From contig JAHCIT010000005.1 in NCBI GenBank assembly GCA_026129095.1, positions 62,001-126,000 of the forward strand: DNA of 64,000 nt, written 5' to 3'. The stretch comes from Deltaproteobacteria bacterium (GTDB taxonomy: Bacteria; JAGRBM01; JAHCIT01). The position numbers were made by a program, and so were the translations under genes. The notes below the pieces were generated by a model. The model saw only the letters and a list, made by a program, of their open reading frames with translations. It was not told where the DNA came from and made no database searches. This document shows, piece after piece, positions 4,210 to 19,394 of the stretch (its first letter is position 1; each line of letters opens with the position of its first letter).

Positions 4210-5134
4210 GACCAGCTCCCGCAGTTGTGATCATGATTTCAAGCCGTTCCTGGCACTGGCCACAGATGGCGCCGTGAACATCGGGGTAAAATGTCCCGAT
4301 TGCGTCTTTCAGGATGCCCTTGTCCGGGATATCGCCGGTCATGACGAACTCGGCCGCAGGGAAACCGCAGAATCCACACTCACAAATAGCCCCGCTTCGC
4401 AGCCGGCGCCGCTGCTGCTGGAGTCCTCTTGCAGCCTCGGCAAGATGCTCATGTGTGATCGTCCGGTGTGCGTCCAGCCACGGCTGGAATTCGGCCGCCT
4501 GCCCCCCTGACAACTGGTCCAACACGGAAAGACGCTCGGCATATTTATCTGTGGCTGCCCAGCCCGCCTTCCGCATGCGGTAATCTGCGTAGAGGGCCCA
4601 CAATAGTGAGTATGCACGGGTGAGCTGCTGGACTTCTGCCGGGTGCCGGCCAGCAAACACCGCATCACCGGTATAGACAAACTCCGGATTTACAAGGTCC
4701 TGGAGCTGAAGCCAGCTGAACTTGAGAAATGAGTCCAGTTTTGCGCCGTCAGTCAGGCTTCCAGCTGTTATGTACAGTGCTGCCTGATTGTTTCCCGCGG
4801 AGGCGTCTTGGTTCCCGGGGAGATCTGCCCCCTCGTCTCCAGACTGGCGTGCCTGGAAAACGACGATTTTCCTGAGCCGCTTCGTGATGAGCGGAAAGTC
4901 CGCCAGGGATTCCTGAAAAACTTCGGGATACCCGAGTTTCTCGAATAATGAGTGGTATACAGTCCTGAATTTCGCTTCACGTACCGCGTCTACCGCCGTT
5001 TCTGCATATATCCTGTCGGCCTGTCGGCGAAAATCGGATTCAAGACGGTGAGCCAGCCGGTCGACAGCAGACCGGATTCGCAATTCGATCGCCGTCTCGA
5101 TCAGGAGAGGATCGAATTCGAAGTCTGTGCCCAT
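4157..5134 (-). CDS. Hypothetical protein with C-terminal CxxC...CxxC metal-binding motif; first gene of the nxr operon
   Basis: ATG at 5134 preceded by GGAGAGAGG (ORF extends to 5224); stop overlaps the nxrA start by 53 bp; CECGFCGFP...CGQC. Confidence 0.8.
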   Translation of the reverse strand: MGTDFEFDPLLIETAIELRIRSAVDRLAHRLESDFRRQADRIYAETAVDAVREAKFRTVYHSLFEKLGYPEVFQESLADFPLITKRLRKIVVFQARQSGDEGADLPGNQDASAGNNQAALYITAGSLTDGAKLDSFLKFSWLQLQDLVNPEFVYTGDAVFAGRHPAEVQQLTRAYSLLWALYADYRMRKAGWAATDKYAERLSVLDQLSGGQAAEFQPWLDAHRTITHEHLAEAARGLQQQRRRLRSGAICECGFCGFPAAEFVMTGDIPDKGILKDAIGTFYPDVHGAICGQCQERLEIMITTAGAGHASQHQESRQEETSLGN

Positions 5135-5240
5135 TCGCCTCTCTCCAAATGCACTCCCGGCAATAACCTCTACAGATGAAATATCCACAGAAAATACCGG
5201 CTTGGACTTCCTAGTTACCGACACCCCCGCGGCTCACGAT

Positions 5241-5254
5241 ATGACAGGTATCAT
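5241..5254 (-). promoter_or_regulatory. Possible FNR/DNR/CRP-family box upstream of the nxr operon
   Basis: ATGAT-ACCT-GTCAT on the minus strand versus consensus TTGAT-N4-ATCAA. Confidence 0.3.
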
Positions 5255-5448
5255 CATCAGAATAATGAAGAAGCGCGGTTTCCACGGACGTCGGTACAGA
5301 TTTGGAAAGACAAGAACTCTCCCTATGGATCCCTGACCGGGCTGATCTGAAATTTTTGGTGGAGGATCTCACCTCCGAATACCGGCCACTCGGAGCACAA
5401 GGAAGGTCACTCACCTGCCCCGCCTCATATCAGCCTTATGCCCCCACA

Positions 5449-5500
5449 GGGCGCACATGACTTTGCTTTTTTGTCCGGAAACCTACGAACTTCTACGAAC
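5449..5500 (+). repeat. att-proximal 52-bp repeat, copy 1, containing CTACGAAC twice at 10-bp spacing
   Basis: 50/52 identical to 13051-13102. Confidence 0.9.
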
Positions 5501-5539
5501 TGGCACGACGGTTTCCCCGTAACTGGAGAGGGTTAAAGG

Positions 5540-5590
5540 GCCGGACTCTTAATCAGCGGGTCGCCGGTTCGAGCCCGGCATCTCCCACCA
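5540..5590 (+). pseudogene. 3' half of tRNA-Lys(CTT); putative attR
   Basis: GACTCTTAATCAGCGGGTCGCCGGTTCGAGCCCGGCATCTCCCACCA has anticodon loop, T-arm and CCA, but no D-arm and a broken 5' anticodon stem. Confidence 0.85.
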
Positions 5591-5878
5591 CACCTTCCCC
5601 CGGCAGCTAAACCCCCGGTATCCCTGTCAGATTGCAGGAATGGGTCCATTACGGCCGGTTCCGGCCAAGACCGCCCGAACTCCTGAAAAACGGGAGCGGA
5701 TGACTTTGGGACAGCGTTTTCGCTGGCAAGCGGGGCTGGTCTTGTGACCTTCCCACAGAGAGCAGGTACAGTTTTTGGGGTGAGGTTGAGACTGGCACCG
5801 CACCAGTTGGTCCATGTTATACGAGTATACGGCTTTCGGTGATTACTCCCGCGAGCCCGAAAGCAGGCGGCCGTAAGC

Positions 5879-6136
5879 GTGAAAACCCCGTCTTCAGTCT
5901 TCAATGATCTCTCAAGATGGCTGGAAGCCTGTGGATGCAGTTTCTCCGGAGAAGAAGTTGGCCGTCTTATTGACCAGGCACTCGACCACCACGAATCCCC
6001 GCAGGTTCTGGTCTCGGCAATTCTCGATCGTTGCTCTGCATTCGACGAATACAACGGAGAACTGCTCTTCCAGTCCGTTTTTGCTCTCTGGAACGACAAG
6101 GCCCGGGAATGGAACCGGGCCCGGCGGTTCAACTAG
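5879..6136 (+). CDS. Small hypothetical protein
   Basis: 85-aa ORF converging on and overlapping the activator stop; no motif recognised. Confidence 0.45.
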   Translation: MKTPSSVFNDLSRWLEACGCSFSGEEVGRLIDQALDHHESPQVLVSAILDRCSAFDEYNGELLFQSVFALWNDKAREWNRARRFN

Positions 6137-7634
6137 GCTCCTCATCAACCCGGACCCCGGAACGAATCAGCCGGTTGTGAAGCGTGGTCCGGGGGATCCC
6201 CAGCAGCCGTGCGGCCTGGGACAGGTTTCCGCCTGACAGGTCCAGTGCCCTGCGAACGAGAGCCAGTTCGAATTCCGCCAATGTCCGGTCCAGATCGAAC
6301 GATCCCCCGAAGTCAGAATCCTTTACCTCGATAATAACCGTCCTGCTGACGGTTGATGGCCGGGCGGCTTCCGCGTCGATGTGGATCACATCAGGCGGTA
6401 TCCGGCCTGACTGGACCGTAATCATCGCCCGTTCAAGGACGTTTTCCAGTTCCCGGACGTTTCCCGGCCAGCCATATTCGCTCATCCGCCTGATCGCCTC
6501 GCTGTCGATGCCAGTGACCGACGTCCCTAGCCGGTTATTCAGCTTCTCAACAATCGCTCTCGCAAGCATTGGCAGGTCATCAATGCGCTCGCGAAGCGGC
6601 TTGAGTTCAACCGGATAGACGGAGAGACGGTAGTACAGATCCTGCCGGAAGCGGCCAGCTTCAACCTCTGCGAGCAGATTCCGGTGCGTCGCCGCAATGA
6701 TACGGCAGTCGCTCCGTTCGGCCCGTTCGGCTCCGACCGGCAGATATTCACGGTTCTGAATCGCCCTGAGGAGCTTCACCTGGATTTCGAGCGGCGCCTC
6801 GCCGATCTCGTCGAGAAACAGCGTGCCACCGCGTGCGACCGAGAATGCCCCCTTGCGCGACTGGGTGGCGCCGGTAAACGAACCCCGCACATGGCCAAAC
6901 AGTTCGCTCTCCACCAGATCCCTGGGCATGGCGGCAAGATTGATTGAAACAAACGGCCCCTTGGCCTTCTGGCTCAGAACGTGGATTATCCGTGCGGCCA
7001 CTTCCTTTCCCGACCCCGTTTCTCCCTGAAGCAGAACAGTCGTCGGAAACGGTGCCACAGTTTCAATCGCGGCAACCACATTGGGGTCCAGATCTTCTTT
7101 CCGGACAAGAATATCCGCCGCCTGAAGGAGCTCATCGGTCAGGTGGACCTTCACGGGTTCCGGCCGGTGCTTCCAGTTGTGCAATGCATCCAGCCGCCGG
7201 AACAGAACAGACTCGGCCGTTGGGATGCACAGATAGTCCCTGAACCCCACATCAAGAGCCCGCCGGGCCAGTGCCATTTCCTCATGAGACAGGCAGGCGA
7301 GTCCCGGCGAAATTCTCAATGCCTCGACCAGAGAACCGGAAATATCCTGTTCCCGCTCCAGGATGCAGACCCAGATTTCGCCCGGATGGACGGGTAGCGG
7401 ATTCAGCACTTCGCGAAGGGAACGGAAGGGCTCGCCCCGCATTCCGGCCCATCGGTTGGCCGATATTTCAAGTGACCGGCTCTGTCCCACAAACAGCACA
7501 AAGAAATCCTTCGACGAAAAACCGTCAGGCAGGACAACAACATCGCCCAGAAGTGGATATTTTGGATGATCTGGAGAGATATATAAACCCGAAATCTGTA
7601 TTACTTCCAGATAGTTACAAAAAGAGACATTCAC
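6129..7634 (-). CDS. Sigma54-dependent activator (degenerate receiver-like N-terminus, AAA+, Fis-type HTH); true start may be downstream
   Basis: GETGSGKE, ESELFGHVRGSFTGA, LFLDEIGE, FRQDLYYRL, WPGNVRELEN, GNLSQAARLLGIPRTTL. Confidence 0.93.
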   Translation of the reverse strand: MNVSFCNYLEVIQISGLYISPDHPKYPLLGDVVVLPDGFSSKDFFVLFVGQSRSLEISANRWAGMRGEPFRSLREVLNPLPVHPGEIWVCILEREQDISGSLVEALRISPGLACLSHEEMALARRALDVGFRDYLCIPTAESVLFRRLDALHNWKHRPEPVKVHLTDELLQAADILVRKEDLDPNVVAAIETVAPFPTTVLLQGETGSGKEVAARIIHVLSQKAKGPFVSINLAAMPRDLVESELFGHVRGSFTGATQSRKGAFSVARGGTLFLDEIGEAPLEIQVKLLRAIQNREYLPVGAERAERSDCRIIAATHRNLLAEVEAGRFRQDLYYRLSVYPVELKPLRERIDDLPMLARAIVEKLNNRLGTSVTGIDSEAIRRMSEYGWPGNVRELENVLERAMITVQSGRIPPDVIHIDAEAARPSTVSRTVIIEVKDSDFGGSFDLDRTLAEFELALVRRALDLSGGNLSQAARLLGIPRTTLHNRLIRSGVRVDEEPS

Positions 7635-7649
7635 GGCATCCTTTTTGAG
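7634..7649 (+). promoter_or_regulatory. Putative sigma54 -24/-12 promoter for the ligase operon
   Basis: CGGCATCCTTTTTGAG: GG-N10-GA versus TGGCAC-N5-TTGC (the -12 C is replaced); about 40 bp upstream of the ATG at 7690. Confidence 0.4.
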
Positions 7650-7689
7650 CTTGTCCCCTCAACCGCACTTCCCCGCGATGGAGGGTTCG

Positions 7690-10581
7690 ATGCCTTTCGA
7701 CCAGAGTGTTAACGGACCCTTTCCCGGACTGGCGGCCATACCATTAACGCTGGCCAATCCCGACGGAAATCCGGCTACCGCACTGCTGGATATACCGGAA
7801 ATGGCGGACGGGCCCTTGATTCCGGTTCTCGTGCCGCCAGTATTCGGACGTCCGAAAGAGGAACTTGGGCCCGTATCAGAGGCTCTCACGGCCCAAAACC
7901 GATTTATCGTGTTCCGGCCTGCATTCCGGTCCACAGGTGACGAAGCTCCCGGCAATCTCGATGACATGTATCTGTCGGGAGAGGAATGCACCTACTGGGG
8001 CCGGTATCTCAGGTCAGAACAGTTCCATACGCTCTGCCGGAACAGGCAGCCAGACATCCAGATCGATACCCGTGTTGCCTGTGTGGCCATGTCCATCGGG
8101 GCCACACAGGCATTTCTGTCCCAGGCCGAACACCAAACTTTCGATGCGCTTGCCCTTCTGTCCTTCGTTCCCCACTACCCGACATTCGTCCGGAACAAGG
8201 TCAAACGCGACTACTACGACCTCGTATCGATCGCCTGGGCACTTCGGATGAAGTCACGGCCCGGCTGGGCCGCCTGTTGCGGGGCAATTGCCGCCCGCAA
8301 AGCCGAAGAAGGCGAAGACCGAGAGACGGCCCGGCGGTATCAGCTGCTGGCAGACCGACTCTCCAACACCTCCAGAATCGACCGGAGCCAGATGGCCTCG
8401 ATGCTCGAAGGAGTGCCGGTCAACGCCTTCTCCGGCATCTGGAATGCCATTCGTGGCACTTTTGATTGCCGCTATGATCTTGAGGCGAATCTGCAGTCGA
8501 ACGCCAAAGTCGGGATTCCGCTTACCTTCATATCCGGCGGCAAGGATGACTACTTCCTGCAGGAAGAGATGGACGAATTCATTGCCCTGGCACGCCGTGA
8601 AGGCCGCGTCCGGCGGCTGCTCCGCCTTGAGAATGCCTGTCACCAGCTCCGTCCGTATCCCTGTTTCGAAAAAGCCATGGAGTTTGTCATCCAAGGGCTA
8701 TATAGCGATCTTGGAATTCAGGACGTACCTGTTCCGTTCTCACTAGCAAGAATAGCGGTCCGCCGGTTTTACGAGGTCCGGGGATTCGCCCTGCGCCATT
8801 CCAAAGACCTGGGCGCACCACCGGAGTTGACCCAAAAGGTTCTGCTTTCCAGCGAGGATCTCGCCCGGGTACTCGGGGAACTGTTCAAGCGCCCGGCAGA
8901 AACCGGCGCACTGGTCCGGCTGCTCGCCAGATCAGCGGAACAGATCGGTGGCGAACGGAGCATTCTCGACGAACTGGAACCGGTCCGGATAGGAAAGATC
9001 CTCAACAAATCGCTTTCACCGGAATTGTACCCTTCCATCGCAATAGGACTCTCTGAAGTTCCCGAACTGATCGGCCATCTGTTCCCAGACCATCTGCTTC
9101 AGGCGCTGGATCCGGAACACCTGGATGGATTGCTCCAGGAATTGCTCCGCCACACAGAAGCACTGGAAGCGTTCCTGACCACGGCAAATCCGGAACTGCT
9201 GCTCTCTCTTGGCAGGCGCAAGGCCCTCGCAGCCGCGCAACGTGCGATAAAACTGGTACCGGCTTTTACTGGACACAATCTACCGAAGGATCTCGATCAG
9301 GTTCCGTTCACCAGCAAGGAAGACTATGTCGAGGCGTTCCCGCTCGAAGACAGGTGCATCCACCGGGAACTTCCGCGGGAAGGGCTCATCGATGAATCGA
9401 GCGGTTCCAGCGGAATCCCAACCAACTGGACCCGTTGCCGCGAGGAGGAAGACCGGCTCGCAAACGGTGCCCGGTTCATCTACCGGTTCCTCTTTGGCCG
9501 TCCCGGTGACGACCGCCCGGTAATTCTGCTCAACGGTTTCAGTCAAGGTGCCTGGGCGACGTCAACCAAGCTAACCGTGCTCGCCCGCCATGTGGCACTC
9601 GTCAAGAATATCGGCCCGGAAGAAGAGCGTATTCTGGATTCCCTCGAGTACTTCGGCCGCCGTTACCGTTACATTATCGCCGGGTATCCGCCGTTTCTGA
9701 GGGAACTTGTCCGGGCCGCCACGGAACGGGTGGGGTTTGATTTGAAACCATATACCATCGATATCCTGCATGGCGGCGAAGGCTATACGGCCGGATGGCG
9801 ACGTTATCTTGAAGTGAATCTGGGATCGGGTGCCCGGATCGTGTCTTCATACGGTGCCTCGGATCTTGATCTCGGCGTTGCATACGAAACCACCCTCGCC
9901 CTCGTGGCCAGAAAAATACTGGAGGAAAACCCTGAGTTCCGCCGGGCCCTTCTGGAGACAGAGCGGATTCCGGTGTTTTTCGGCCAATATAATCCGATAG
10001 AGTTCTTTCTGGAAACCCGCCGCCACGACGGAGAATGCAGGACCCTCGTCTGCACCGTGACTAATCTGAAAGCGCACCAGCCCCGCATCCGTTACGATAT
10101 CGGAGACGAAGGGGATATCCTCCCATTTGACCGGATTGTAAACACGGCAAGGGAGTTCGGATTCGACCTGCCAGCATCAGGTTCCCTGAAGTTTCCGTTC
10201 GTCTACATATTCGGCCGTCTCGACGGGACCATCAGCATTGACGGTGCGAATGTTTATCCCGACCAGGTGCACGAGGCGATCCTGACCGATCATCAGCTGG
10301 CTCCCCTGGTCCGCGGCTTCCGTCTACGCCGTTCGGAAAACAGTTCCGGAGAAGTGCGATTCGAAATCGATCTGGAAATGTTCGGGGATGAGACAACGGG
10401 TGGCCCTGATGTCAGCACGGTTGCGGGCAAGCGGATATGCGATTATCTTGCGAAAGTGAACATAGATTTCCGTGAATCGCTGGCTCATAACCCGGCAGCC
10501 ACCAGTCCGGAAGTCAGGGTAGTCCGACCGGGTGAACTGGGAATCGGCACGACCATCAAACGCCGGTATGTGGATCGCTAA
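7690..10581 (+). CDS. Fusion: LuxD-like alpha/beta-hydrolase (acyl-thioesterase/transferase) + helical linker + PaaK/LuxE-like adenylate-forming ligase
   Basis: GGAGGG RBS before ATG 7690; triad-like VAMSIG / GKDDY / ACHQL; C-terminal PFTSKEDY, SSGSSGIP, AGYPPFL, GGEG, SYGASD, RYDIGD, GRLDGTISIDGANVYP. Confidence 0.8.
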   Translation: MPFDQSVNGPFPGLAAIPLTLANPDGNPATALLDIPEMADGPLIPVLVPPVFGRPKEELGPVSEALTAQNRFIVFRPAFRSTGDEAPGNLDDMYLSGEECTYWGRYLRSEQFHTLCRNRQPDIQIDTRVACVAMSIGATQAFLSQAEHQTFDALALLSFVPHYPTFVRNKVKRDYYDLVSIAWALRMKSRPGWAACCGAIAARKAEEGEDRETARRYQLLADRLSNTSRIDRSQMASMLEGVPVNAFSGIWNAIRGTFDCRYDLEANLQSNAKVGIPLTFISGGKDDYFLQEEMDEFIALARREGRVRRLLRLENACHQLRPYPCFEKAMEFVIQGLYSDLGIQDVPVPFSLARIAVRRFYEVRGFALRHSKDLGAPPELTQKVLLSSEDLARVLGELFKRPAETGALVRLLARSAEQIGGERSILDELEPVRIGKILNKSLSPELYPSIAIGLSEVPELIGHLFPDHLLQALDPEHLDGLLQELLRHTEALEAFLTTANPELLLSLGRRKALAAAQRAIKLVPAFTGHNLPKDLDQVPFTSKEDYVEAFPLEDRCIHRELPREGLIDESSGSSGIPTNWTRCREEEDRLANGARFIYRFLFGRPGDDRPVILLNGFSQGAWATSTKLTVLARHVALVKNIGPEEERILDSLEYFGRRYRYIIAGYPPFLRELVRAATERVGFDLKPYTIDILHGGEGYTAGWRRYLEVNLGSGARIVSSYGASDLDLGVAYETTLALVARKILEENPEFRRALLETERIPVFFGQYNPIEFFLETRRHDGECRTLVCTVTNLKAHQPRIRYDIGDEGDILPFDRIVNTAREFGFDLPASGSLKFPFVYIFGRLDGTISIDGANVYPDQVHEAILTDHQLAPLVRGFRLRRSENSSGEVRFEIDLEMFGDETTGGPDVSTVAGKRICDYLAKVNIDFRESLAHNPAATSPEVRVVRPGELGIGTTIKRRYVDR

Positions 10582-10613
10582 CGGACTGGCATCATTGAGG
10601 AGATAGGCAGGCA

Positions 10614-12272
10614 GTGAACCTCCAATCAGCCATCCTGCTACTGCTTGGAATCTCCCTCATTCCGCTGGCGGGCTATGTCTACAGGTTTGCTCACGACCGG
10701 GCCGAGGCACGCTGGTTTGCTCTGGGAGTCGTTGCGGCGTCTACTTATCTCATGGCCATCGCCATGATCGATCTGGCCCCATCTGACCGGGCAGCCCTTT
10801 GGGCCACCCGTTTGGCTTATGCAGGCCCCAGCATCGGCTTCCCCGCGATGATCCTGCTCGTCCGCAGAATCCTTCTGGCTACAGACGCCTCCCGGTCACT
10901 GTCAGCATTGCTGTTTCTGGCCTCCATCGCCGCCCACTCATTCGCCCTGTTTGGCGGCTCGGTGATCTCCGGAATCGACCGGACGACCATGCCCCCATCC
11001 TTTGTCTACGGACCATTCGCAATTGTCCCGCTGTCTTTCGATGCCGGAATACTCCTGTTTCTGGTTGCCGTCGTCATACGTGACTGGCCCAAGGCACCTT
11101 GGAGAGCCCAGAACCGGTTTCTCGTTCTGGTTGTTTCCCTGATCCTCTGGACGTTTTTCACCATCACTTCCAACCTGGTCCTGCCCATTCTCTACGGAGA
11201 TAACCGGTACTATCTGGTTGGCCCTGCCCTGCTTTTGCTTCCCGCCTGCGGCGGCGCCTGGGTCATTGCAGGAGAGCGGCTGCCGGATCTGCTTGCAATG
11301 GCAGGCCGGCTGTTCCCAAACGGGCGTTCCCGGTTGCTTCGGAAACTCGCCGATCTGGAACAGGGCCTGCTTGAGTTGCCAGACATTCATGCTCTCGTTT
11401 CAGAACTGGAGGGAGTGATGGGAGGCCGGCAGTTTGCCTACGCAGGAGCCGGAGACGGACTCAGCTTTACCCCGGGAGCCGTGGATTTTCTATACAAACC
11501 CGGTGACCGGCAGCGTGTCGAGAAACTGGCGAGCCATTACGCCCATTCTCCGGAAACCCTGGATGAAAACCTCCTGCTGACCGGATGGACGGAAGTTATC
11601 GGCTTTGCCGAGCCTGTAGCCTCTCCGTGGCCCGTCTCTTCTGCCCGGGAGATCGAGGTGATAAACAGGATGACCACCTCTCTCGCGGCTGAACCAGTGG
11701 TGATCCTTTCCGCAACAGGATATCTCGATACGATTTCCATCAAGTCCCTTGCCAAACAGGTCCGGCGAAGCCTGGTCTTCACGGCTGAACTGGTCGCAAA
11801 ACTGGATGGCGGCCGCGAGGATGCGGTCCGGTTGCTGAAGGAAGAACGGAACCTCAGGGATGTCATGATTGTCATCCGGCTGGCGGAGCAGGCCCGTGCC
11901 GAACATCTGGAAACCACGGTTTCCGCCTGTGTCTCAGATGGAGCCAAGCTCCTGCTCGTTACTGCTATGGACCGGAACGATCTGATTGGATACGGCCTCT
12001 TCGGCGGTACGGATATCAATCTTCAGGAAGCTCCCCTCTTCGCCTTGGGCAGTCCGCTGCAACGGGCTTCCAACATATCGGTCCATCTGGATCTCATTCT
12101 TTCCCGGCTCGAAGCCAGCTACGGCACCTTCTTCCGCCTGACGCCGGAAGAGAGACACTCGTTCTGCCGCCGGCAGTGGCGGTCAATCCAGGAACTGGAG
12201 TTTGAACTGGAAAAGCATCTGCTGATGTTCCGTTTTTCCCCTTCGGCAAGCCAGAAAGGAATACCCGTATGA
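10614..12272 (+). CDS. Membrane protein with about 7 N-terminal TM helices (HisKA_7TM-like) and a degenerate cytoplasmic AAA-like domain
   Basis: First ~220 aa hydrophobic; C-terminus resembles the sigma54-activator AAA lid; GAGGAG RBS; stop overlaps next start (ATGA). Confidence 0.7.
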   Translation: MNLQSAILLLLGISLIPLAGYVYRFAHDRAEARWFALGVVAASTYLMAIAMIDLAPSDRAALWATRLAYAGPSIGFPAMILLVRRILLATDASRSLSALLFLASIAAHSFALFGGSVISGIDRTTMPPSFVYGPFAIVPLSFDAGILLFLVAVVIRDWPKAPWRAQNRFLVLVVSLILWTFFTITSNLVLPILYGDNRYYLVGPALLLLPACGGAWVIAGERLPDLLAMAGRLFPNGRSRLLRKLADLEQGLLELPDIHALVSELEGVMGGRQFAYAGAGDGLSFTPGAVDFLYKPGDRQRVEKLASHYAHSPETLDENLLLTGWTEVIGFAEPVASPWPVSSAREIEVINRMTTSLAAEPVVILSATGYLDTISIKSLAKQVRRSLVFTAELVAKLDGGREDAVRLLKEERNLRDVMIVIRLAEQARAEHLETTVSACVSDGAKLLLVTAMDRNDLIGYGLFGGTDINLQEAPLFALGSPLQRASNISVHLDLILSRLEASYGTFFRLTPEERHSFCRRQWRSIQELEFELEKHLLMFRFSPSASQKGIPV

Positions 12273-12712
12273 CCCCAGCGCAAGGCGAAAAGATCTATCA
12301 ACTCCGGACCAAACTCGGACTCACTCCCCAGCAATTTGGACGCATGGCCGGAGTAACGGCGGTGGTTGTTGCCAAATGGGAATCCGGTTTTGCCGAACCC
12401 GGCTGGCTGGCGCTCGGCCGGATAAGACGCGCCTGCGACGTCGACCTCAACTGGCTGCTGGACAGCGGCGATGACCGGCCGGACTATCTCCAAAACGCTG
12501 CCATCTGCGAGGGGAAGCTCGTCGATTCATCACTCCCTAAAATCAGCCGGAATCTCGAGCAAAAACTGATTGGCGACTACCGCAAGCTGAACGAAATCGA
12601 CAGGAGCTTCGTCAGAATGGTTCTGGAAACAGTCGGGAAAACTCCAGAAGTACCTGTGGCCAGGAGGTCGTCTCCCAAATTGCGCCCAAATCCATCAGAC
12701 AAGTTTGTCTAA
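12269..12712 (+). CDS. XRE-family HTH transcriptional regulator
   Basis: LRTKLGLTPQQFGRMAGVTAVVVAKWESG...VDLNWLL. Confidence 0.88.
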   Translation: MTPAQGEKIYQLRTKLGLTPQQFGRMAGVTAVVVAKWESGFAEPGWLALGRIRRACDVDLNWLLDSGDDRPDYLQNAAICEGKLVDSSLPKISRNLEQKLIGDYRKLNEIDRSFVRMVLETVGKTPEVPVARRSSPKLRPNPSDKFV

Positions 12713-13050
12713 ACGACCACCGTCACAGCCTTTGGATACAAATGGTCCCTTAATCCCATTCCCGGTCTTAAATAGAACCGGTTTCATGAATGCCTGGGGA
12801 GGATCAGGAGTAAAGTTTGGCAGATGAAGCCGAAGAAGTTTTCCGGATAAAACTCCGTGCCTGGCAAACATTTTTCAGAACCAGCCGATTCAGGCGAACA
12901 GGCGCTCGATATGCGGCGAAACCCCGCTCGCCATAGCCGCCGGAGAAAAACCTCTCCACCTCGTCGTTATCGGACGTGGCGCAAAGCCGCTGGTGGCTGT
13001 CTGTAAAGCGATCAAGACCAGCGAACATCTTTTCGTCGTCTCGGTTCGCC

Positions 13051-13102
13051 GGGCGCACATGGCTTTGCTTTTTTGCCCGGAAACCTACGAACTTCTACGA
13101 AC
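13051..13102 (+). repeat. att-proximal 52-bp repeat, copy 2
   Basis: 50/52 identical to 5449-5500. Confidence 0.9.
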
Positions 13103-13148
13103 CTTGAGAATTACTGATATTTCTGGCCGCAGTTCGCGGAATGCCAGT

Positions 13149-13194
13149 GCCGGACTCTTAATCAGCGAGTCGCCGGTTCGAGCCCGGCATCTCC
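13149..13194 (+). pseudogene. Second 3' fragment of tRNA-Lys(CTT); putative attR, lacking CCA
   Basis: 45/46 identical to 5540-5585. Confidence 0.85.
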
Positions 13195-13203
13195 TGTCGC
13201 AAG

Positions 13204-14007
13204 CTACTTGCCGAATAATCCCATCAGCGTGCCAGGGGCCTTGGGCATCAGGCGCGAGAGGGCGTCGAGGACTCTGGCGTCCGGACCGATCAGCAGGCGG
13301 GGTTCGTTAGACTGGATGGCATCCGCGATCTGCCGGGCGGCTAACTCCGGCTTCACGCCGAACTTTGCCACTAGACCCCTGCCCCGGTCTTTCAGCGTGG
13401 TGGCTTTGCCCCGGTAGCGGGCGGCGGCGGGAATGTTCGTCCGGACGGCACCGGGATGGACGCAGGTGACGCCGATATGTTTCGATGCCAGTTCGGCGCG
13501 CAGTGTCTCCGAAAATCCCCGTACGGCGTGCTTGGTCAGTACGTAACCCGGCATGCCGGCGATGGGCATGAAACCGGCTATGCTCGAAATGTTCACGATG
13601 TGTGCTTCAGGCCGGTTCTCAAGCAGCGGCAGGAAGAACTTGCAGCCATAGATCACGCCCCACAGGTTGACGCCGATGACCCACTCGAAGTCCTCGATCG
13701 TGTGATCTGCGAAACCGCCCAGCAGCGCGACGCCGGCATTGTTCACCAGGATATCGGCCTGCCCGTGCTCACCAAGGACCGCTCCGGGGAGCTTTTCCAT
13801 CTCGTCCCGCCTGGAGACATCCATCCGGTGGACTGACGCCCTTCGGCCAAGTCCCTCGACACGCTGGCGGACCGATTCGAGACCGGTTTCATTGATATCC
13901 ACAAGGGCGACATCGCAACCCCGAAGGGCCAGCTCAAGGCTCACGGCCTCGCCGATCCCGCTACCGGCACCCGTTATAACGGCAACCTTTCCGGTGAGGT
14001 CTTTCAT
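13204..14007 (-). CDS. SDR-family oxidoreductase
   Basis: TGAGSGIG, NNAG, YVLTK. Confidence 0.93.
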   Translation of the reverse strand: MKDLTGKVAVITGAGSGIGEAVSLELALRGCDVALVDINETGLESVRQRVEGLGRRASVHRMDVSRRDEMEKLPGAVLGEHGQADILVNNAGVALLGGFADHTIEDFEWVIGVNLWGVIYGCKFFLPLLENRPEAHIVNISSIAGFMPIAGMPGYVLTKHAVRGFSETLRAELASKHIGVTCVHPGAVRTNIPAAARYRGKATTLKDRGRGLVAKFGVKPELAARQIADAIQSNEPRLLIGPDARVLDALSRLMPKAPGTLMGLFGK

Positions 14008-14011
14008 GAAC

Positions 14012-14848
14012 TTATTTCGGCGGAGTTTTCATCATCCCTCGCGGGTCGATGAGCAGCTTGTGCACCTGCATGTTGTGGGAATGGCCAAGCTGCTGGAGCG
14101 ACATCGCCGCCTGCAGCGCCGTCCAGAGGCCCTGAGCATCCTGGGTCTGGTTCACCGACTGCTTGGCCAGCCGGAGCCCCATGCTGGGCCGGGAAGCGAT
14201 CTTCGAGGCCAGTTCAAGCGTCCGCTTTTCCAGTTCATCCCTCGGTACCACCTGATTCACCATGCCAAGCGCCTTCGCTTCGGCAGCTGTGACCGGATCC
14301 CCGGTAAAGAGCATTTCCTTCGCCTTGCGAACGCCGACTTCCCAGGGGTGGGCGAAATACTCGACACCATTCACGCCGAAACCGACGACCGGGTCTGAAA
14401 ACGTCGCATCATCACTGGCAATGATGAGGTCGCAGACCCAGATCAGCATCAGCCCGCCGGCAATCGTCTTTCCCTGCACCTGGGCGATCGTCGGCTTCGG
14501 CAGATTTCTCCAACGCCAGCAAAGACCGAGATAAATCTCTTCCTCTTGCGCCATGTACCCTTCGGCTCCCGGCAGGTCGAAGCCGCCCCAGTTCGTGACC
14601 GGAGTGAACGACGTCAGGGGCGTATTGTCCCGAAGATCGTGTCCCGAAGAAAAGTGCGGACCATCGGCGGCGAGGACGATCACCTTCACGTCCTTGTCAT
14701 GCGCTGCCAGGTCGAACGCGGTATTGATCTCATAGAGCATCTTCTTGCTCTGGGCGTTCCGGGTCTCTGGGCGGGCCAGGGTGATCCGGGCCACTCCGGC
14801 AGAGGGGGAATCATAACGGATTGTGGTGAACTCGGGATCTGTGCCCAT
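14012..14848 (-). CDS. Enoyl-CoA hydratase/isomerase family protein
   Basis: RPETRNA, FSSGHDL, KPTIAQVQG..AGG. Confidence 0.93.
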   Translation of the reverse strand: MGTDPEFTTIRYDSPSAGVARITLARPETRNAQSKKMLYEINTAFDLAAHDKDVKVIVLAADGPHFSSGHDLRDNTPLTSFTPVTNWGGFDLPGAEGYMAQEEEIYLGLCWRWRNLPKPTIAQVQGKTIAGGLMLIWVCDLIIASDDATFSDPVVGFGVNGVEYFAHPWEVGVRKAKEMLFTGDPVTAAEAKALGMVNQVVPRDELEKRTLELASKIASRPSMGLRLAKQSVNQTQDAQGLWTALQAAMSLQQLGHSHNMQVHKLLIDPRGMMKTPPK

Positions 14849-14872
14849 GCTGTCCGCTCCCTGAAACCGGGC

Positions 14873-15631
14873 TCAGAATGCCACGCGTTTCGTAAAACCG
14901 CCGTCGGCGACCAGATTGATACCAGTGACAAGACTCGCCACGGGACTTGCAAGAAAAGCGGCGGCCCGTCCGATCTCTTCCGGTGTACCCATGCGGCCGA
15001 TGGCGCACTGCCTGACGGTCTGTTCATAGAACGCCGGCATGCCTTTCTTCATCATTTCCCACTGCCCGCCCTCGAAGATCACCGGACCGGGTGAAATGCA
15101 GTTCACACGGATCCCCTTTGCCGCGTACATCTGGGACAGGCCCTTGGCATGGGTAATCAGGGCCGCCTTGAGCGCGCTGTAGGGGATCGGGGCCATGAAA
15201 TACTCGACTGCCGCCGTGCTGCTGATGAACACCACGCTGGCCTCGCCACTTTTCAGGAGAAACGGCAGCGCAGCGTCAAAACATCTCACGCTCCCCATGA
15301 GATCGGTCTCGAAATTCGCCTGCCAGGCGGCTTCTCCGGGGTTTCCTCCACCAGTCGGATTCGGCACCAGGATGTCGATTCCACCGAGTTGTCCGGCGGC
15401 TTCGGCGATCCAGGTCTTCAGCGTCTTTGCATCCTTTACATCGACGGATTTGGTAAACACTCTCCCGCCATGGCGGGCAAGACTCTCTGCAGCCGTCTTG
15501 AGTCCCGCCTCGTTGCGGGCACAGACAGCGATGTCGGCACCTTCGGCCGCGAGTGTTTCGGCTATGGCCCGACCGATGCCACGGCTGGCCCCAGTCACGA
15601 TCGCCTTCTTGCCCTTCAGTTTCAGATCCAT
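14873..15631 (-). CDS. SDR-family oxidoreductase (FabG-like)
   Basis: TGASRGIG, YSALK, IRVNCISPG, ADGG. Confidence 0.93.
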   Translation of the reverse strand: MDLKLKGKKAIVTGASRGIGRAIAETLAAEGADIAVCARNEAGLKTAAESLARHGGRVFTKSVDVKDAKTLKTWIAEAAGQLGGIDILVPNPTGGGNPGEAAWQANFETDLMGSVRCFDAALPFLLKSGEASVVFISSTAAVEYFMAPIPYSALKAALITHAKGLSQMYAAKGIRVNCISPGPVIFEGGQWEMMKKGMPAFYEQTVRQCAIGRMGTPEEIGRAAAFLASPVASLVTGINLVADGGFTKRVAF

Positions 15632-15660
15632 GCTTTCCTCCCGGCAGGCCTGCTCTTGGC

Positions 15661-15683
15661 TTTAACACGTTTAAAATGTTAAA
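15661..15683. promoter_or_regulatory. TetR operator(s), TnnAACnnGTTnnA type
   Basis: TTTAACACGTTTAA plus overlapping TTTAAAATGTTAAA, between the divergent SDR and TetR genes. Confidence 0.7.
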
Positions 15684-15733
15684 CGCAATATGGTTTATCC
15701 GGAAAATCCCCGGACCATTACAGGAGCGTCGGC

Positions 15734-16420
15734 ATGGGTCTTCTGGAAAATCAGCGGCAGGAACGGATCGACAGGATCATGGAAACCGCCCGGCGAATGA
15801 TCGCCGAGCGGGGCTATGAAGGGGTCAACATGCGGGATCTCGCAGCAGCGAGCCGGGTGTCGGTTCCGACGCTCTACAACCTTTGCGGAGACAAGGCGGA
15901 ACTACTGTCCCGGTCCATGCAGGGACAGTTCTCGACCCTTCTCAAGACGATAGACCGGGAAACCCGCACGAAGGGCCTTGACAGGGTGATATCCATTGTC
16001 ACCCGGTGCAGCTCGGAAATGCTGCGACTGTCGCGCTACTCCCGGGCCGTCCTCGATGTGTTTGTGAACTCCGGGCAGATGCGGGAGGTGAGCGAGATGA
16101 TCGCCGGTGCTCTTGCACGGGACATCGAAAACGCCCTCCATGAAATGAAATCATCCCGCGAAATCGAGGCATGGGTCGATCCCCGTATCCTGTCAGAACA
16201 GGTCGCCAGCCATCTCATCATCTGTGCGCTCCAGTGGGAGAGTGGCTATCTCAGCGACAAGGCCCTGCCGGCCTCGATGCTGTACGGTTCCTGCCTCATG
16301 CTGCGGGGAGTTGCGGCGGGTCCGGCGGCCAGAGTGCTGGAGAAACGGATCCGTACCGTGCAGGCCGATGCCTATTCTGAAAAACCAGCCCGCCGGCAAC
16401 CGGCAAGCCGCACGTCCTGA
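15734..16420 (+). CDS. TetR-family regulator
   Basis: ARRMIAERGYEGVNMRDLAAASRVSVPTLYN. Confidence 0.93.
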   Translation: MGLLENQRQERIDRIMETARRMIAERGYEGVNMRDLAAASRVSVPTLYNLCGDKAELLSRSMQGQFSTLLKTIDRETRTKGLDRVISIVTRCSSEMLRLSRYSRAVLDVFVNSGQMREVSEMIAGALARDIENALHEMKSSREIEAWVDPRILSEQVASHLIICALQWESGYLSDKALPASMLYGSCLMLRGVAAGPAARVLEKRIRTVQADAYSEKPARRQPASRTS

Positions 16421-16452
16421 TGTGATTGGGAAGACTGTCCGGCCATGGAACA

Positions 16453-17997
16453 ATGACCATGCCTTCATTCGCTGCCGCCCGTTCAATCTCGAATCCGGAC
16501 CAGATTGCACTCCGGGACCACCTTCAGGAGTTCAACTGGAGCGATATCGACCGGATTCTGAACCGTATCGCCAACGGAGTGCTGGCGCTGGACCCAACTC
16601 CGGTTCGTCGCGTGGCCATCTTCGCCCAGAATTCGGCGGAAACGCTGCTAGCGCATCTGGGTGGCCTTATTGGCGGTGCATCAACCGTACCGGCGAGCTT
16701 CCATCTCACGGCCCCGGAGCTTGCCTACATCCTGGAGGATTCCGGCTCGACGGTGCTGTTCGTCGGTCCGGAAACGGCCCGGACGGGGCTCGAGGCCGCC
16801 CGGCTCGCCCGGATCCCCCTCGTCATCGGCTGGCGTTGCCAGCCTGCAGAGGGGGTCGTCCACTGGAATGACTGGCTGGATCGGGCGTCTACCCAGCCAC
16901 CTCCGCTGGACCATGCTCCCAGGGCGAATTTCATGTACACGTCCGGCACCACCGGGCGGCCGAAAGGCACGGAGTTGCCGCCGACGATGTTCGCAGGTGG
17001 TGCGACCGTGGAGGAACATCTGGAGCGCCTTGCCCGGGCTCCCTTTGCCCTGTTCGGAACGCATCTGGTTGCAGGCCCGCTCTATCATACGGGGCCTCTC
17101 ACAGGCGTCCGGGTGCTGGGCGGAGGCAAGCCGGTCGTCGTGCTTCCGAAGTTTGACGCTGAAGCGGTCCTTGCGGCCATTGATAACTATAAAGTGGAAA
17201 GCTCGGTTCTGGTGCCGACCCATTTTATCCGCCTGCTGGCGCTGCCGGAGGATATCCGGAAGAAATACAATACCCGCAGCCTGAAGTTTGTCTTCCACAC
17301 GGGCTCCGCCTGCCCGGTGGACGTGAAACGGGGGATGCTCGACTGGTGGGGACCGGTTCTCTATGAGGCCTACGGCGCGACTGAAGTCGGAACGACCTGC
17401 GCCATCTCGCCGTACGACTGGCTGAAACATCCCGGCTCTGTGGGGAAACCCGTACCGCCATTCAGCGTGCTGGTGACCGACGATCAGGGCAGGGAACTTC
17501 CTCCCGGTACCGAGGGCAGGCTCTACTTCCGTGACTCTACCGGCCGGGGCATTGTCTATCACAACGACCCAGCCAAGTCGGCCGCGGCGCATCTTGCACC
17601 TGGTATATTCACTCTTGGCGAGATCGGCTACGTGGATTCCGGCGGCTTCGTCTATATTACCGACCGGTTCTCAGACATGGTCGTGTCGGGCGGTGTGAAC
17701 ATCTACCCCGCCGAGTCAGAGTCGGTAATCCTTCGTCATCCACAGGTGGACGACGTCGCCTGTATCGGGGTTCCCCATCCGGTGATGGGAGAGGAACTGA
17801 AAGCCATCGTGGTGGCCGCAGACCCGGGAAAACCGCCCCCGGCCCAGGAGATCATCAGCTTCTGCAAGGCGAATCTCGCCCACTACAAATGCCCAAAATC
17901 GGTGGACTTCGTTGCCGATCTGGGCCGCACGGCCGCCGGCAAGGTGAACAAGAAAAAGCTCAAGGCCCCCTACTGGCCGGAATCCCGCTCGCCGTAA
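16453..17997 (+). CDS. Acyl-CoA synthetase (AMP-binding)
   Basis: YTSGTTGRPKG, YGATE, DRFSDMVVSGGVNIYP, GKVNKK. Confidence 0.93.
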   Translation: MTMPSFAAARSISNPDQIALRDHLQEFNWSDIDRILNRIANGVLALDPTPVRRVAIFAQNSAETLLAHLGGLIGGASTVPASFHLTAPELAYILEDSGSTVLFVGPETARTGLEAARLARIPLVIGWRCQPAEGVVHWNDWLDRASTQPPPLDHAPRANFMYTSGTTGRPKGTELPPTMFAGGATVEEHLERLARAPFALFGTHLVAGPLYHTGPLTGVRVLGGGKPVVVLPKFDAEAVLAAIDNYKVESSVLVPTHFIRLLALPEDIRKKYNTRSLKFVFHTGSACPVDVKRGMLDWWGPVLYEAYGATEVGTTCAISPYDWLKHPGSVGKPVPPFSVLVTDDQGRELPPGTEGRLYFRDSTGRGIVYHNDPAKSAAAHLAPGIFTLGEIGYVDSGGFVYITDRFSDMVVSGGVNIYPAESESVILRHPQVDDVACIGVPHPVMGEELKAIVVAADPGKPPPAQEIISFCKANLAHYKCPKSVDFVADLGRTAAGKVNKKKLKAPYWPESRSP

Positions 17998-18008
17998 CGT
18001 GAGGTCGG

Positions 18009-19394
18009 TCAACCCTTCAGGTAATCATCGAGCGTCCTGTGCAGATGCCGGATGCGGCTCTCCTGGTAGTTTCCGAGCGTAACGCCCGGCTTCACGGCGG
18101 CTTTAAGCCCCTTTTGTACGAATGGAATATTGCTCATGTCCTGATCGAATACCGGACCGAGAAGCCCCAGTTCCTTGGCCGATGCCCAGGCTTCATCTGA
18201 ACCCAGAAGCCGGTATTTTGCCGGCGGTGGCCGCTCGCCGCCCTTCCGGACCGGCGCAAGCAGCATCACCTCCATCAGGCAGGAATCCGGGTCGTGCCCG
18301 TCCGGCCGGAACCGGTAGACAATGTTGTTGAAGAATCCTCCCCAGGGAAACAGATTGGGGAAAACGAAATACTGGATCGCGTCGAGCATCTCGCTGTCGG
18401 TAGCCTGCTTGAGATCCCAGCCGCTGCTGCCGCCGATCATCCCTCTCAGCATGTTCGCCGTGAAACTCCGGGCGGTCTGGCCGGGCGGCAGTTTCACACT
18501 GATCTTGTTTCCTTCCCGGCCGGCGTACTCCGCCATCATCGAGTCGAGGATCTTCTCATCCGGGTAAGCATCCCCGCCCAGGTGCGGACTCGCCACCCCC
18601 ATCGCCGTGATCATCCGGTTGAAGTGCGGCTTGCCGGGATAGACGTCGTACTGGGTATTGGCGTCCGCCGTGGAAGGCATGATCTGTGGATGGGTGGCGA
18701 TCACATGGTATGATTCCATGAACGCCTCCGCGCAGACCTTCCAGTTTGCGGCGACGATCTTGCCGACATGCGCCGACTTGTACCGGTTCCCGAGATCCCA
18801 CCGCTCGAAATGTTGCGGCACGACGTCCAGATAATCGGCGAGCGGCCTTGCCTCTGGATCAAGGTTGATAAAGACGAACCCGCCCCACAGGCCGGTCTTC
18901 ACTTCCGGCAGCCGGAACTCCTCGTCTGTCTTGTGGGCAAAATCCCAGCGGCAGGGGATTTCATGAATCGAACCGTCCAGCTTCCATGTGAACCCGTGAA
19001 ACGGACATCGAATCGCGGCGGCATGGCCCTGTCCCGTTTTCAGCAGCCGTCCACGGTGCAAGCAGACGTTATGATAGGCCCGTATGTCGCCATCCTGGGT
19101 GCGGAGAAGCAGGACTGAATGATCGCCGATCTCGTAGACCAGATAGTCGCCAGGTTTCGCAATATCTTCCTCCCGGCAAGCCATCTGCCATACCCGGTTC
19201 CACATGCGCGCCATTTCGAGGTCATGGAACTCCCGCGAGGTGTAGCGCTCCACTGGCAGGTCGGCGGCCGGCATCTTTTCGGCCACCGTTTCACGAAGGG
19301 CGGGAGGGACTGGCCGGGTCTCCCGGTCGAGAATCTGCTGTACGGTTGGCGCCTTGCACCGGTTGTCGGTGGTCTTCAGGTTCGACTCGCCCAT
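18009..19394 (-). CDS. Rieske ring-hydroxylating oxygenase alpha subunit
   Basis: CLHRG...CPFHG Rieske motif; NWKVCAEAFMESYHVIATH; DQD iron-ligand region. Confidence 0.93.
   Translation of the reverse strand: MGESNLKTTDNRCKAPTVQQILDRETRPVPPALRETVAEKMPAADLPVERYTSREFHDLEMARMWNRVWQMACREEDIAKPGDYLVYEIGDHSVLLLRTQDGDIRAYHNVCLHRGRLLKTGQGHAAAIRCPFHGFTWKLDGSIHEIPCRWDFAHKTDEEFRLPEVKTGLWGGFVFINLDPEARPLADYLDVVPQHFERWDLGNRYKSAHVGKIVAANWKVCAEAFMESYHVIATHPQIMPSTADANTQYDVYPGKPHFNRMITAMGVASPHLGGDAYPDEKILDSMMAEYAGREGNKISVKLPPGQTARSFTANMLRGMIGGSSGWDLKQATDSEMLDAIQYFVFPNLFPWGGFFNNIVYRFRPDGHDPDSCLMEVMLLAPVRKGGERPPPAKYRLLGSDEAWASAKELGLLGPVFDQDMSNIPFVQKGLKAAVKPGVTLGNYQESRIRHLHRTLDDYLKG

Follow-up and report, generated by a model that had tools for sequence, protein, structure and literature searches.

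The window analysed here is a stretch of 64,000 nucleotides from a Deltaproteobacteria bacterium (GTDB lineage Bacteria; JAGRBM01; JAHCIT01; GenBank assembly GCA_026129095.1, contig JAHCIT010000005.1, positions 62,001 to 126,000 of the forward strand), and coordinates are counted from its first letter unless another sequence is named. Positions 10614..12272 of its plus strand hold a gene with a GTG start for a protein of 552 aa (P0001), present as a single copy in its own genome, in which a seven-transmembrane (7TM) domain precedes what appears to be a dead AAA+ domain. The gene lies between two others on the same strand. Directly upstream, across a 32-nt gap, is the gene of a 978-aa protein (7645..10581), and downstream is that of a 147-aa XRE-family helix-turn-helix (HTH) protein (12269..12712; HTH_3, 5.9e-8), whose start overlaps the 7TM stop by 4 nt. 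Divergent to the 978-aa gene, on the minus strand at 6129..7634, is the gene of a sigma-54 activator, or bacterial enhancer-binding protein (bEBP), of 501 aa as its longest open reading frame (ORF). Sigma-54 activators are a standard model for the switching of AAA+ motors; phosphorylation, the binding of a ligand in cis and a small number of soluble anti-activators are the switches known for them. An earlier sequence-only reading of this stretch had proposed that the 7TM protein carries a catalytically dead AAA domain related to the activator and might control it independently of phosphorylation. In the analysis described below, the output module of the membrane receptor is an AAA+ domain of bEBP origin, in which the lid is kept whereas ATP binding and hydrolysis are lost, along with the sigma-54-contacting L1 loop and the DNA-binding domain. 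We lean towards the view that this domain docks onto the N-terminal domain of the activator and that a signal sensed by the 7TM domain alters the contact, and hence the assembly of the activator ring and sigma-54 transcription.

The 7TM protein and its degenerate AAA+ domain

An AlphaFold2 (AF2) model of the 7TM protein, built on a 10-sequence family alignment, had a mean predicted local distance difference test score (pLDDT) of 80.9 and a predicted TM-score (pTM) of 0.52. Residues 1-225 (10614..11288, +) form a membrane domain, apparently of the HisKA_7TM type, with a beta-hairpin (residues 118-132) in the loop between the fourth and fifth transmembrane (TM) helices. About seven such helices had been counted in the sequence-only reading, and seven long helices were modelled between residues 3 and 219 (3-25, 29-54, 58-88, 94-112, 137-160, 163-194 and 202-219). 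Because basic residues cluster directly after TM7, with six lysines and arginines in residues 220-245 and 0-1 in each of the other loops, the C-terminus fits a cytoplasmic position. The HisKA_7TM match of the window's protein in Pfam (residues 8-185, E 0.001, 19.4 bits) fell below the cut-off of 28.6, and the same domain was found in 8 of the 10 family members when these were scanned singly at E<=1 (best 2e-7). Residues 1-222 also superposed on the 7TM bundles of class C G-protein-coupled receptors (VIA, Z 15.5); as the tool describes a Z near this level as usual among helical bundles, the superposition says no more of the model than that it is a seven-helix bundle. The sequence-only reading had found no output motif after the helices. 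This agrees with the Pfam scan, in which the window's protein showed no output domain, be it HisKA, HATPase, GGDEF or another, and with the NCBIfam scan, which returned no match to it at all; the dimerisation and histidine phosphotransfer domain (DHp, HisKA) and HATPase_c had no Pfam match in any of the 10 members and none in the NCBIfam scan.

The membrane domain is followed by a juxtamembrane cytoplasmic region of helices and a short hairpin (residues 226-311; 11289..11546, +). Eight of its residues are invariant in the family (G231, R240, L245, E249, P287, Y294, D298 and R301), and it matched no Pfam family in the window's protein or in the 10 members. A low-confidence linker (residues 312-333) contains the motif T323-G324-W325 (11580..11588, +), hereafter TGW, which is kept in 10/10 members and has a pLDDT below 50 in the monomer model. 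Beyond the linker lie a degenerate AAA+ alpha/beta core (residues 344-480; 11643..12053, +) and a lid of the AAA_lid_14 type (residues 481-540; 12054..12233, +). The core was modelled with five strands (362-367, 387-392, 417-423, 445-450 and 475-478), and the lid, with helices at 485-503, 511-519 and 525-540, is the best-conserved cytoplasmic part and the predicted docking surface.

Kinship of this domain to the bEBPs emerged at the level of profiles. The sequence-only reading had seen a parallel between the C-termini of the 7TM protein and the neighbouring activator. As a pairwise similarity this did not hold: the best BLASTP match between the two proteins reached 15.4 bits (E 5.2), and the leucine- and glutamate-rich (LE-rich) pair gave E 8.5. 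Pairwise similarity, being not above chance, was therefore dropped as evidence of kinship, and profile methods were used instead. A family profile of the query and nine full-length relatives (A2, 10 rows) was searched against all PDB sequences, and all 18 matches at E<=0.01 were bEBPs (best 5.5e-6). At E<=10, bEBPs made up 29 of 32 matches, the three others having E values of 0.074, 1.9 and 5. The matched bEBPs were FleQ, FlrA, FlrC, NtrC1, NtrC4, NtrX, ZraR, DmpR/CapR, NifA, VpsR and PspF, and the matches always spanned the last core strand and the lid (profile positions ~447-553). When the profile was compared by hhalign with the AAA+ domains of the 18 bEBPs of the same genome, the probability was 84% (E 8.5e-7, 219 columns, query 326-552), and in this form the proposed parallel stands. 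Scanned singly against Pfam, 6 of the 10 members matched AAA_lid_14 (best 5.9e-7), the window's protein not among them, and none matched Sigma54_activat.

Structure prediction, which had been suggested as a check, also returned an AAA+ fold. The best Foldseek match of the cytoplasmic domain was FlrC (4qhs_B, E 7.6e-4), with FleQ, ZraR, PspF, NtrC4, DmpR, RFC and ORC among the others. VIA-align placed model residues 339-542 on FlrC (6lua_D) with Z 12.5 and a root-mean-square deviation (rmsd) of 3.2 A over 196 aligned residues, and an independent ESM Atlas model aligned to sigma-54 and DnaA-type AAA+ models with TM 0.47-0.57. Together, these results support a bEBP-type AAA+ fold in which the catalytic and sigma-54-contacting motifs have been lost.

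The losses cover each of the motifs compared. Walker A (GxxxxGK[ST]) is present in 0/10 members, the position of the bEBP GESGTGKE being occupied by SATG-YLD in the window's protein. GAFTGA (L1) is likewise present in 0/10 members, and its stretch is a gap in the hhalign alignment. The acidic pair of Walker B (hhhhDE) was found in 0/10 members, the strand aligned with the bEBP GGTLFLDE reading DVMIVIRL. At the sensor II position (bEBP GNVRELEN) the window's protein has RSIQE-LEF, with the sensor II arginine absent, and the Walker B, sensor II and Arg-finger positions are not conserved across the family. No C-terminal HTH family was matched in Pfam by the window's protein or the members, and the chain ends about 12 residues past the lid. 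The absence of Walker A, GAFTGA and an HTH, noted in the sequence-only reading, thus extends to the family, and the AAA+ domain is, judged by its motifs, a dead enzyme. Compared with the bEBPs (NtrC, FleQ, FlrC, ZraR and PspF; PF00158 with PF25601), it shares the alpha/beta core and helical lid and a profile-level homology; in contrast to them, it is without Walker A, Walker B, GAFTGA/L1, conserved Arg-finger and sensor II positions and a DNA-binding domain, and is fused to a 7TM membrane domain. Given the loss of the catalytic, L1 and DNA-binding parts and the 7TM fusion, the protein is not itself an activator.

The domain is nevertheless still selected, since full-length frames are kept in 6/6 genomes of the phylum, 19 residues of the cytoplasmic part are invariant, and conservation is higher in the lid than in the core. 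Identity among paralogues is 32-38% in the lid (481-540) and 16-25% in the alpha/beta core (344-480), the least conserved part. The invariant residues include TGW and, in the lid, S489, D493, Y503, P511, E512 and E533. The lid is under selection.

The pseudo-receiver of the activator and the predicted complex

The partner activator has the motifs of a working bEBP: Walker A (GETGSGKE), GSFTGA, Walker B (in GGTLFLDEIGE), GNVRELEN and a Fis-type HTH, with Pfam matches to Sigma54_activat (7.1e-63), AAA_lid_14 (9.6e-21) and HTH_8 (5.4e-11). PADLOC matched it to RtcR/PspF-type models only as a generic bEBP, and assigned the 7TM and 978-aa proteins to no defence family. Its start is uncertain: homologues begin near residue 42-46, yet the GTG at 7634 has AAGGA 4 nt upstream. 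If both genes begin where their longest ORFs do, the activator gene and the divergent 978-aa gene would be 10 nt apart (7634-7645).

The N-terminal part of the activator (residues 40-165; 7140..7517, -) was assigned by AF2 and structure search. Residues 40-170 were modelled as a (beta-alpha)5 domain (pLDDT 79), whose best match among 48,161 PDB representatives was the NtrC4 chain 3dzd_B (Z 14.7, rmsd 3.0 A, 120 aligned), in a search independent of Foldseek. About 45 further receiver domains, including those of NtrX, TorR, NtrC1 and DctD, matched at Z>11.6, and the Pfam family Response_reg did not match the activator. The sequence-only reading had described this N-terminus as receiver-like and lacking the acidic pocket and the K-P signature. 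The fold bears out the first part, and the acidic pocket and the lysine are indeed missing. G50-Q51 stand in place of the DD pair after beta1, S116-H117 follow beta4, and after beta5 I137-P138 replace K-P, with the lysine lost and the proline kept. E93 occupies the phospho-acceptor position after beta3, where the other five partner proteins have D, E, R, E and E. The activator N-terminus is a pseudo-receiver. No kinase family was found in the ORFs scanned between 724 and 19394, which also fits the earlier remark that no kinase is present. HisKA_7TM histidine kinases (PF16927) resemble the present pair in having a seemingly related 7TM sensor region (8/10 members) and an adjacent partner of receiver fold. 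In contrast to those kinases, the sensor here is without a DHp or catalytic domain and the receiver is without the DD pocket and the lysine, so that phosphotransfer is excluded so far as sequence can tell.

We modelled a 1:1 pair of activator residues 40-440 (alignment A3, 6 rows) and 7TM protein residues 226-552 (alignment A2, 10 rows). The interface score ipSAE was 0.71, 0.74 and 0.71, a pass, with a pLDDT of 74 for the partner of the activator and agreement between runs in at least 75% of contacts. Two controls in which the partner of the activator was swapped scored 0.00, and one in which the activator was swapped scored 0.51. In the calibration of the mark applied to ipSAE, 116 of 157 solved complexes reached it, as did 2 of 215 mismatched pairs; it is a rough guide in this case, own alignments having been used. 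Multimer modelling had been proposed as a check on the pairing, and the complex passed it narrowly (0.71 against 0.51 for the best control); neither of the two outcomes that the sequence-only reading had named as refuting it was seen. On the side of the activator, the interface consists of pseudo-receiver residues 51-58, 114-127, 133-146 and 157-160 and a few AAA+ residues (192-198, 294 and 331-340). On the side of the 7TM protein, it consists of the TGW linker (320-327 and 331-335) and the lid (485-542), and the lid part includes the invariant residues S489, D493, Y503, P511, E512 and E533. Invariant residues were concentrated at both faces: 9 of 19 fell among the 49 interface residues of the 327 modelled for the 7TM protein (hypergeometric p 5e-4), and 9 of 17 among the 34 interface residues of the 126 of the pseudo-receiver (p 0.014).

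These contacts suggest a mechanism in which the dead AAA+ domain would be a docking module. Its lid and TGW linker are predicted to bind the pseudo-receiver of the divergently encoded activator on the active-site and alpha4-beta5-alpha5 face, the face normally addressed by a kinase or a phosphoryl group. A signal at the membrane domain would change the contact between the lid and TGW and the pseudo-receiver, and the changed contact would set whether the activator assembles an active ring and drives sigma-54 transcription. We consider this course of events somewhat probable. As to its direction, tethering or anti-activation at rest with release on a signal would be modestly favoured over activation by binding, because the modelled contacts include activator residues 331-340, by alignment the FRQDLYYRL helix, a segment that in bEBPs is part of the subunit interface. 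Membrane sequestration of the activator is possible. We infer that the pair is a phosphorylation-free sensor and regulator, two-component-like, with protein contact in the place of phosphotransfer. For the phosphorylation-independent pairing put forward in the sequence-only reading, the dead AAA+ domain, the pseudo-receiver, the pairing of the genes at 6/7 loci and the passing complex all speak in favour. The ring-type contact that it had envisaged, hetero-oligomerisation of the HrpR/HrpS or FleQ/FleT kind, finds no support in the model, which seats the pseudo-receiver on the lid and TGW and shows no mixed AAA+ ring.

A mixed ring deserves consideration all the same. The dead AAA+ domain might insert into the activator hexamer or cap it core-to-core, as a membrane-tethered poison or tuning subunit in the manner of HrpR/HrpS and FleQ/FleT, and we regard this as unlikely. 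In its favour, the domain is a bEBP paralogue with a conserved lid, lids form part of the subunit interfaces of AAA+ proteins, and some of the modelled contacts are on the AAA+ core of the activator (192-198, 294 and 331-340). Hetero-oligomeric bEBP pairs are also documented, namely FleQ/FleT of Rhodobacter sphaeroides (PMC7277832) and HrpR/HrpS together with HrpV, a trans-acting bEBP regulator that acts on HrpS (PMC7057263). However, the lowest-error contacts in all listed pairs are from the pseudo-receiver to TGW and the lid, not core-core, and the alpha/beta core, where most ring contacts would be expected, shows the lowest conservation in the domain. The model is of a 1:1 pair, which places ring geometry outside its scope. 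FleQ/FleT and HrpR/HrpS are likewise pairs of AAA+ paralogues whose genes lie together and whose products act jointly; unlike the 7TM protein, which is membrane-bound and dead and has no modelled ring contact, they are soluble and are described as activators in mixed complexes.

Family distribution, locus types and the weighing of the docking reading

The 7TM family is very rare. An exhaustive phmmer search of 1.84 billion representative proteins gave 13 matches at E<=0.001, nine of them full-length relatives, with identities of 77% for P0002 and 28-33% for P0003-P0010. Word-indexed protein searches returned the 7TM protein itself and one 77% relative. A search for related loci with a 2-row alignment found none, and one with the C-terminal part found two close relatives at contig ends and a doubtful 37% fragment. 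Of 41 genomes in the relatives search, 6 carried the 7TM family, and all belonged to the same family or order. Within the collection it is present in 6/6 genomes of a small phylum, in one to three copies each, as full-length open frames without stops whose paralogues are 26-31% identical. The family is confined to this one small, poorly known, uncultured phylum. The genome of the window itself encodes one 7TM copy, 18 bEBPs and rpoN (430 bits against a cut-off of 277).

One further protein of the representative library, P0014 (569 aa), has a membrane region that weakly resembles query residues 105-238 (E 3.3e-4). This region is followed by Sigma54_activ_2, AAA_lid_14 and HTH_8, with Walker A kept (GEMGSGK) and, as read from the sequence, no GAFTGA. 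P0014 is very distant from the 7TM protein. It retains Walker A and a Fis HTH and could bind DNA itself; it may represent a DNA-binding relative anchored in the membrane, or else a form similar to an ancestor.

Nine loci, the window included, were compared, and they fall into several arrangements. At type-A loci (the window, L009 and L010), a full bEBP gene is divergent to the gene of the 978-aa protein, and the 7TM gene comes after the latter. Walker A is intact in the type-A partners, which also have GAFTGA (in the window as GSFTGA), Walker B, a lid and a Fis HTH. At type-B loci (L011, L012 and L013), the 7TM gene is divergent to a bEBP-like gene and convergent with an XRE gene. The type-B partners (L011 4806-5984, L012 11227-12459 and L013 10685-11812) are proteins of 375-410 aa with a degenerate Walker A, GAFTGA deleted and no HTH. 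L015 and L016 are truncated, their upstream side ending at a contig end. Thus a bEBP or bEBP-like neighbour is present at 6/7 informative loci, and all six share one N-terminal domain. L005 and L008 have genes for small Fis-HTH proteins (141-175 aa) in the vicinity, and XRE proteins are also found near type-B pairs.

The same comparison bears on the possibility that the 7TM protein serves its operon mates, either as a scaffold or sensor for the product of the PaaK-like 978-aa enzyme or as an anti-repressor of the coupled XRE protein. The strand, the 32-nt gap and the 4-nt overlap would suit such a function, and the 978-aa gene recurs at 3 loci and the XRE gene at 6/9. Neither neighbour is universal, however: the 978-aa gene is absent from L011-L013 and the XRE gene from L009, L010 and L014, and the most constant neighbour is the pseudo-receiver bEBP or bEBP-like gene. 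We therefore judge a function directed at the operon mates to be improbable. That the protein is a relic, a decayed membrane-anchored bEBP-like regulator whose cytoplasmic domain no longer signals, is very improbable, for although every catalytic motif is gone and P0014, with its related membrane region, Walker A-bearing bEBP-like module and Fis HTH, suggests such an ancestor, the frames are stop-free and full-length in all six genomes despite the low identity of the paralogues, TGW and lid residues are invariant, and the pairing with a pseudo-receiver partner is conserved.

The reading in which the dead domain docks onto the pseudo-receiver has to be set against several results that weaken it. 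The complex passed at exactly the required margin (+0.20), and the control that kept the dead domain and swapped the activator still reached 0.51, which marks the dead domain as sticky in silico. Resemblance to solved bEBPs in which receiver and AAA+ domain are packed together may account for the pass, at least in part, and two such structures (3dzd and 1ny5) are among the matches. With 6 and 10 rows, the alignments are shallow, and they are an input to the model as well, which leaves the enrichment of invariant residues at the interface not fully independent of it. Residues 226-552 of the window's own protein matched nothing in Pfam, neither Sigma54_activat nor AAA_lid_14, so that no lid threshold was reached, and its pairwise similarity to the activator is at the level of chance. 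At L014 (genome G004) the neighbour of the 7TM gene, downstream of it, is just a 146-aa Fis-HTH protein. At L011-L013 the partner is itself dead and so cannot provide the output by activating sigma-54 transcription; with both partners dead, the type-B output must pass via something else. Nor did the scans turn up a convincing sigma-54 promoter between the divergent genes. A scan of the window for TGGC-N8-TGC gave 15 matches against 13 expected, none of them between 4209 and 7700, and when the regions between the divergent genes of six loci were scanned for the sigma-54 consensus, no match exceeded 8/12, those at that level lying inside coding starts. A TGG..TGCA site at 5648-5633 (-) also scored only 8/12. 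A scan for sigma-70 promoters and terminators was at or below shuffle expectation.

The docking mechanism can be compared with PspA-PspF and HrpV-HrpS, to which its proposed logic would be alike, an activator being controlled by protein contact and not by phosphorylation. The Psp system also has a membrane link. In contrast to the 7TM protein, PspA and HrpV are not AAA+ derived, and they act on the AAA+ domain of activators without a regulatory domain, whereas the modelled target here is a pseudo-receiver domain. A literature search, with most subscription journals outside its coverage, found no description of such an architecture. A receiver-less, kinase-less sensor and activator pair made from bEBP parts is very rare and undescribed, while the kinds of process involved, trans-regulation and pseudo-enzyme adaptors, are already known. 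If the mechanism is true, a membrane receptor with a dead copy of a motor as its output and an unphosphorylatable receiver as its target would be a new switching principle and a clear case of a pseudo-enzyme as signalling adaptor. The proposed contact residues are named, which makes the predictions directly testable. At least two genomes of the phylum carry nitrite oxidoreductase, and the system may thus be relevant to regulation in organisms of this sort.

Neighbouring genes, repeats and transcripts

The C-terminal ~430 aa of the 978-aa protein resemble adenylate-forming enzymes of the PaaK type, with phenylacetate-CoA ligase (2y4o_A) matched at E 1.2e-4 over residues 549-748 and a weak NCBIfam PaaK match at residues 794-899; its first ~540 aa matched no family. 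The gene is conserved at ~1e-290 in L009 and L010. This PaaK-like enzyme of type-A loci could make or consume a cue for the 7TM domain. Homologues of the XRE protein are encoded beside the 7TM gene in L011, L012, L013, L015 and L016. An ORF of 85 aa (5879..6136, +) is convergent with the activator gene and has no Pfam family, and weak homologues of it occupy the same place in L010 (4881-5207, E 4.9e-6) and L009 (4510-4806, E 1e-3; phmmer).

The module (~5590-13050) is bracketed by direct repeats on the plus strand, at 5449..5592 and 13051..13194. The left copy consists of a conserved block and the 3' half of a tRNA-Lys(CTT)-like gene. Two blocks of the right copy are each 96% identical to it (5449-5500 with 13051-13102 and 5537-5585 with 13146-13194), at a spacing of 7602-7609 nt. 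Neither Rfam, run on 4000-13500, nor ARAGORN called a tRNA in the repeats, so that these tRNA-like repeats are not intact genes. Contig C19 carries five copies of the repeat in the same orientation (~145-240 nt) at ~36.5, 40.6, 57.3, 67.4 and 75.0 kb, and the sole intact tRNA of the tRNA-Lys(CTT) kind lies at the end of contig C14. The repeats look like tandem insertions at one tRNA attachment (att) site. Within the left repeat, just upstream of the tRNA-like half, 5501-5516 (+) reads TGGCAC-N5-TTTC, in which the -24 element is close to the sigma-54 consensus and the -12 element is imperfect, and which may be due to chance; variants of it occur in two other repeat copies.

The left end of the window holds, downstream of the activator and on its strand, orf355 (4157-5224, -), a full-length periplasmic-type NxrA gene (724-4209, -) and the start of an NxrB-like gene (1-438, -). 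NxrA scored 1795 bits against subunit A of the Kuenenia nitrite oxidoreductase (7b04_B) and has a Tat-like N-terminus; orf355 encodes 355 aa with a Cys-rich C-terminus and belongs to no family. Sigma-54 regulators upstream of nxrAB have been reported in Nitrospira (PMC6606698). We considered the activator as an nxrAB regulator and did not adopt this, as the adjacency is not conserved and a repeat boundary parts the two sets of genes. NxrA was found in 2 of the 6 phylum genomes, in G005 on another contig than the 7TM gene. Since nxrB-nxrA-orf355 lie in one repeat segment and the activator/7TM module in the next, their adjacency is possibly incidental. A wider picture, which we offer tentatively and rate as rather doubtful, is of an undescribed type of two-component system, with the 7TM/dead-AAA+ protein in place of the kinase and the pseudo-receiver in place of the receiver, which would have diversified within the phylum into pairs with a live activator and doubly dead pairs whose DNA binding comes from separate small HTH proteins. 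In this genome it may have been brought beside nxrAB by tandem insertion at tRNA-Lys, and it could couple a cue from outside to the control of energy metabolism through sigma-54.

Three RNA libraries, from as many studies, have contigs that cover parts of the 7TM gene, which denotes presence in an RNA library and is not proof of transcription. A contig of X19 is identical over 10392-10634, one of X20 covers 11820-12037, and X9 contigs, 95-99% alike, span nearly all of 9291-13000. Many bins of the stretch are uncovered in X19, X20 and X18, and no inference was drawn from the uncovered parts. Past the right repeat, 13204-19394 holds a cluster of lipid or aromatic-acid type, with two short-chain dehydrogenases/reductases, an enoyl-CoA hydratase, a TetR/KstR-like regulator, an acyl-CoA synthetase and the alpha subunit of a Rieske oxygenase.

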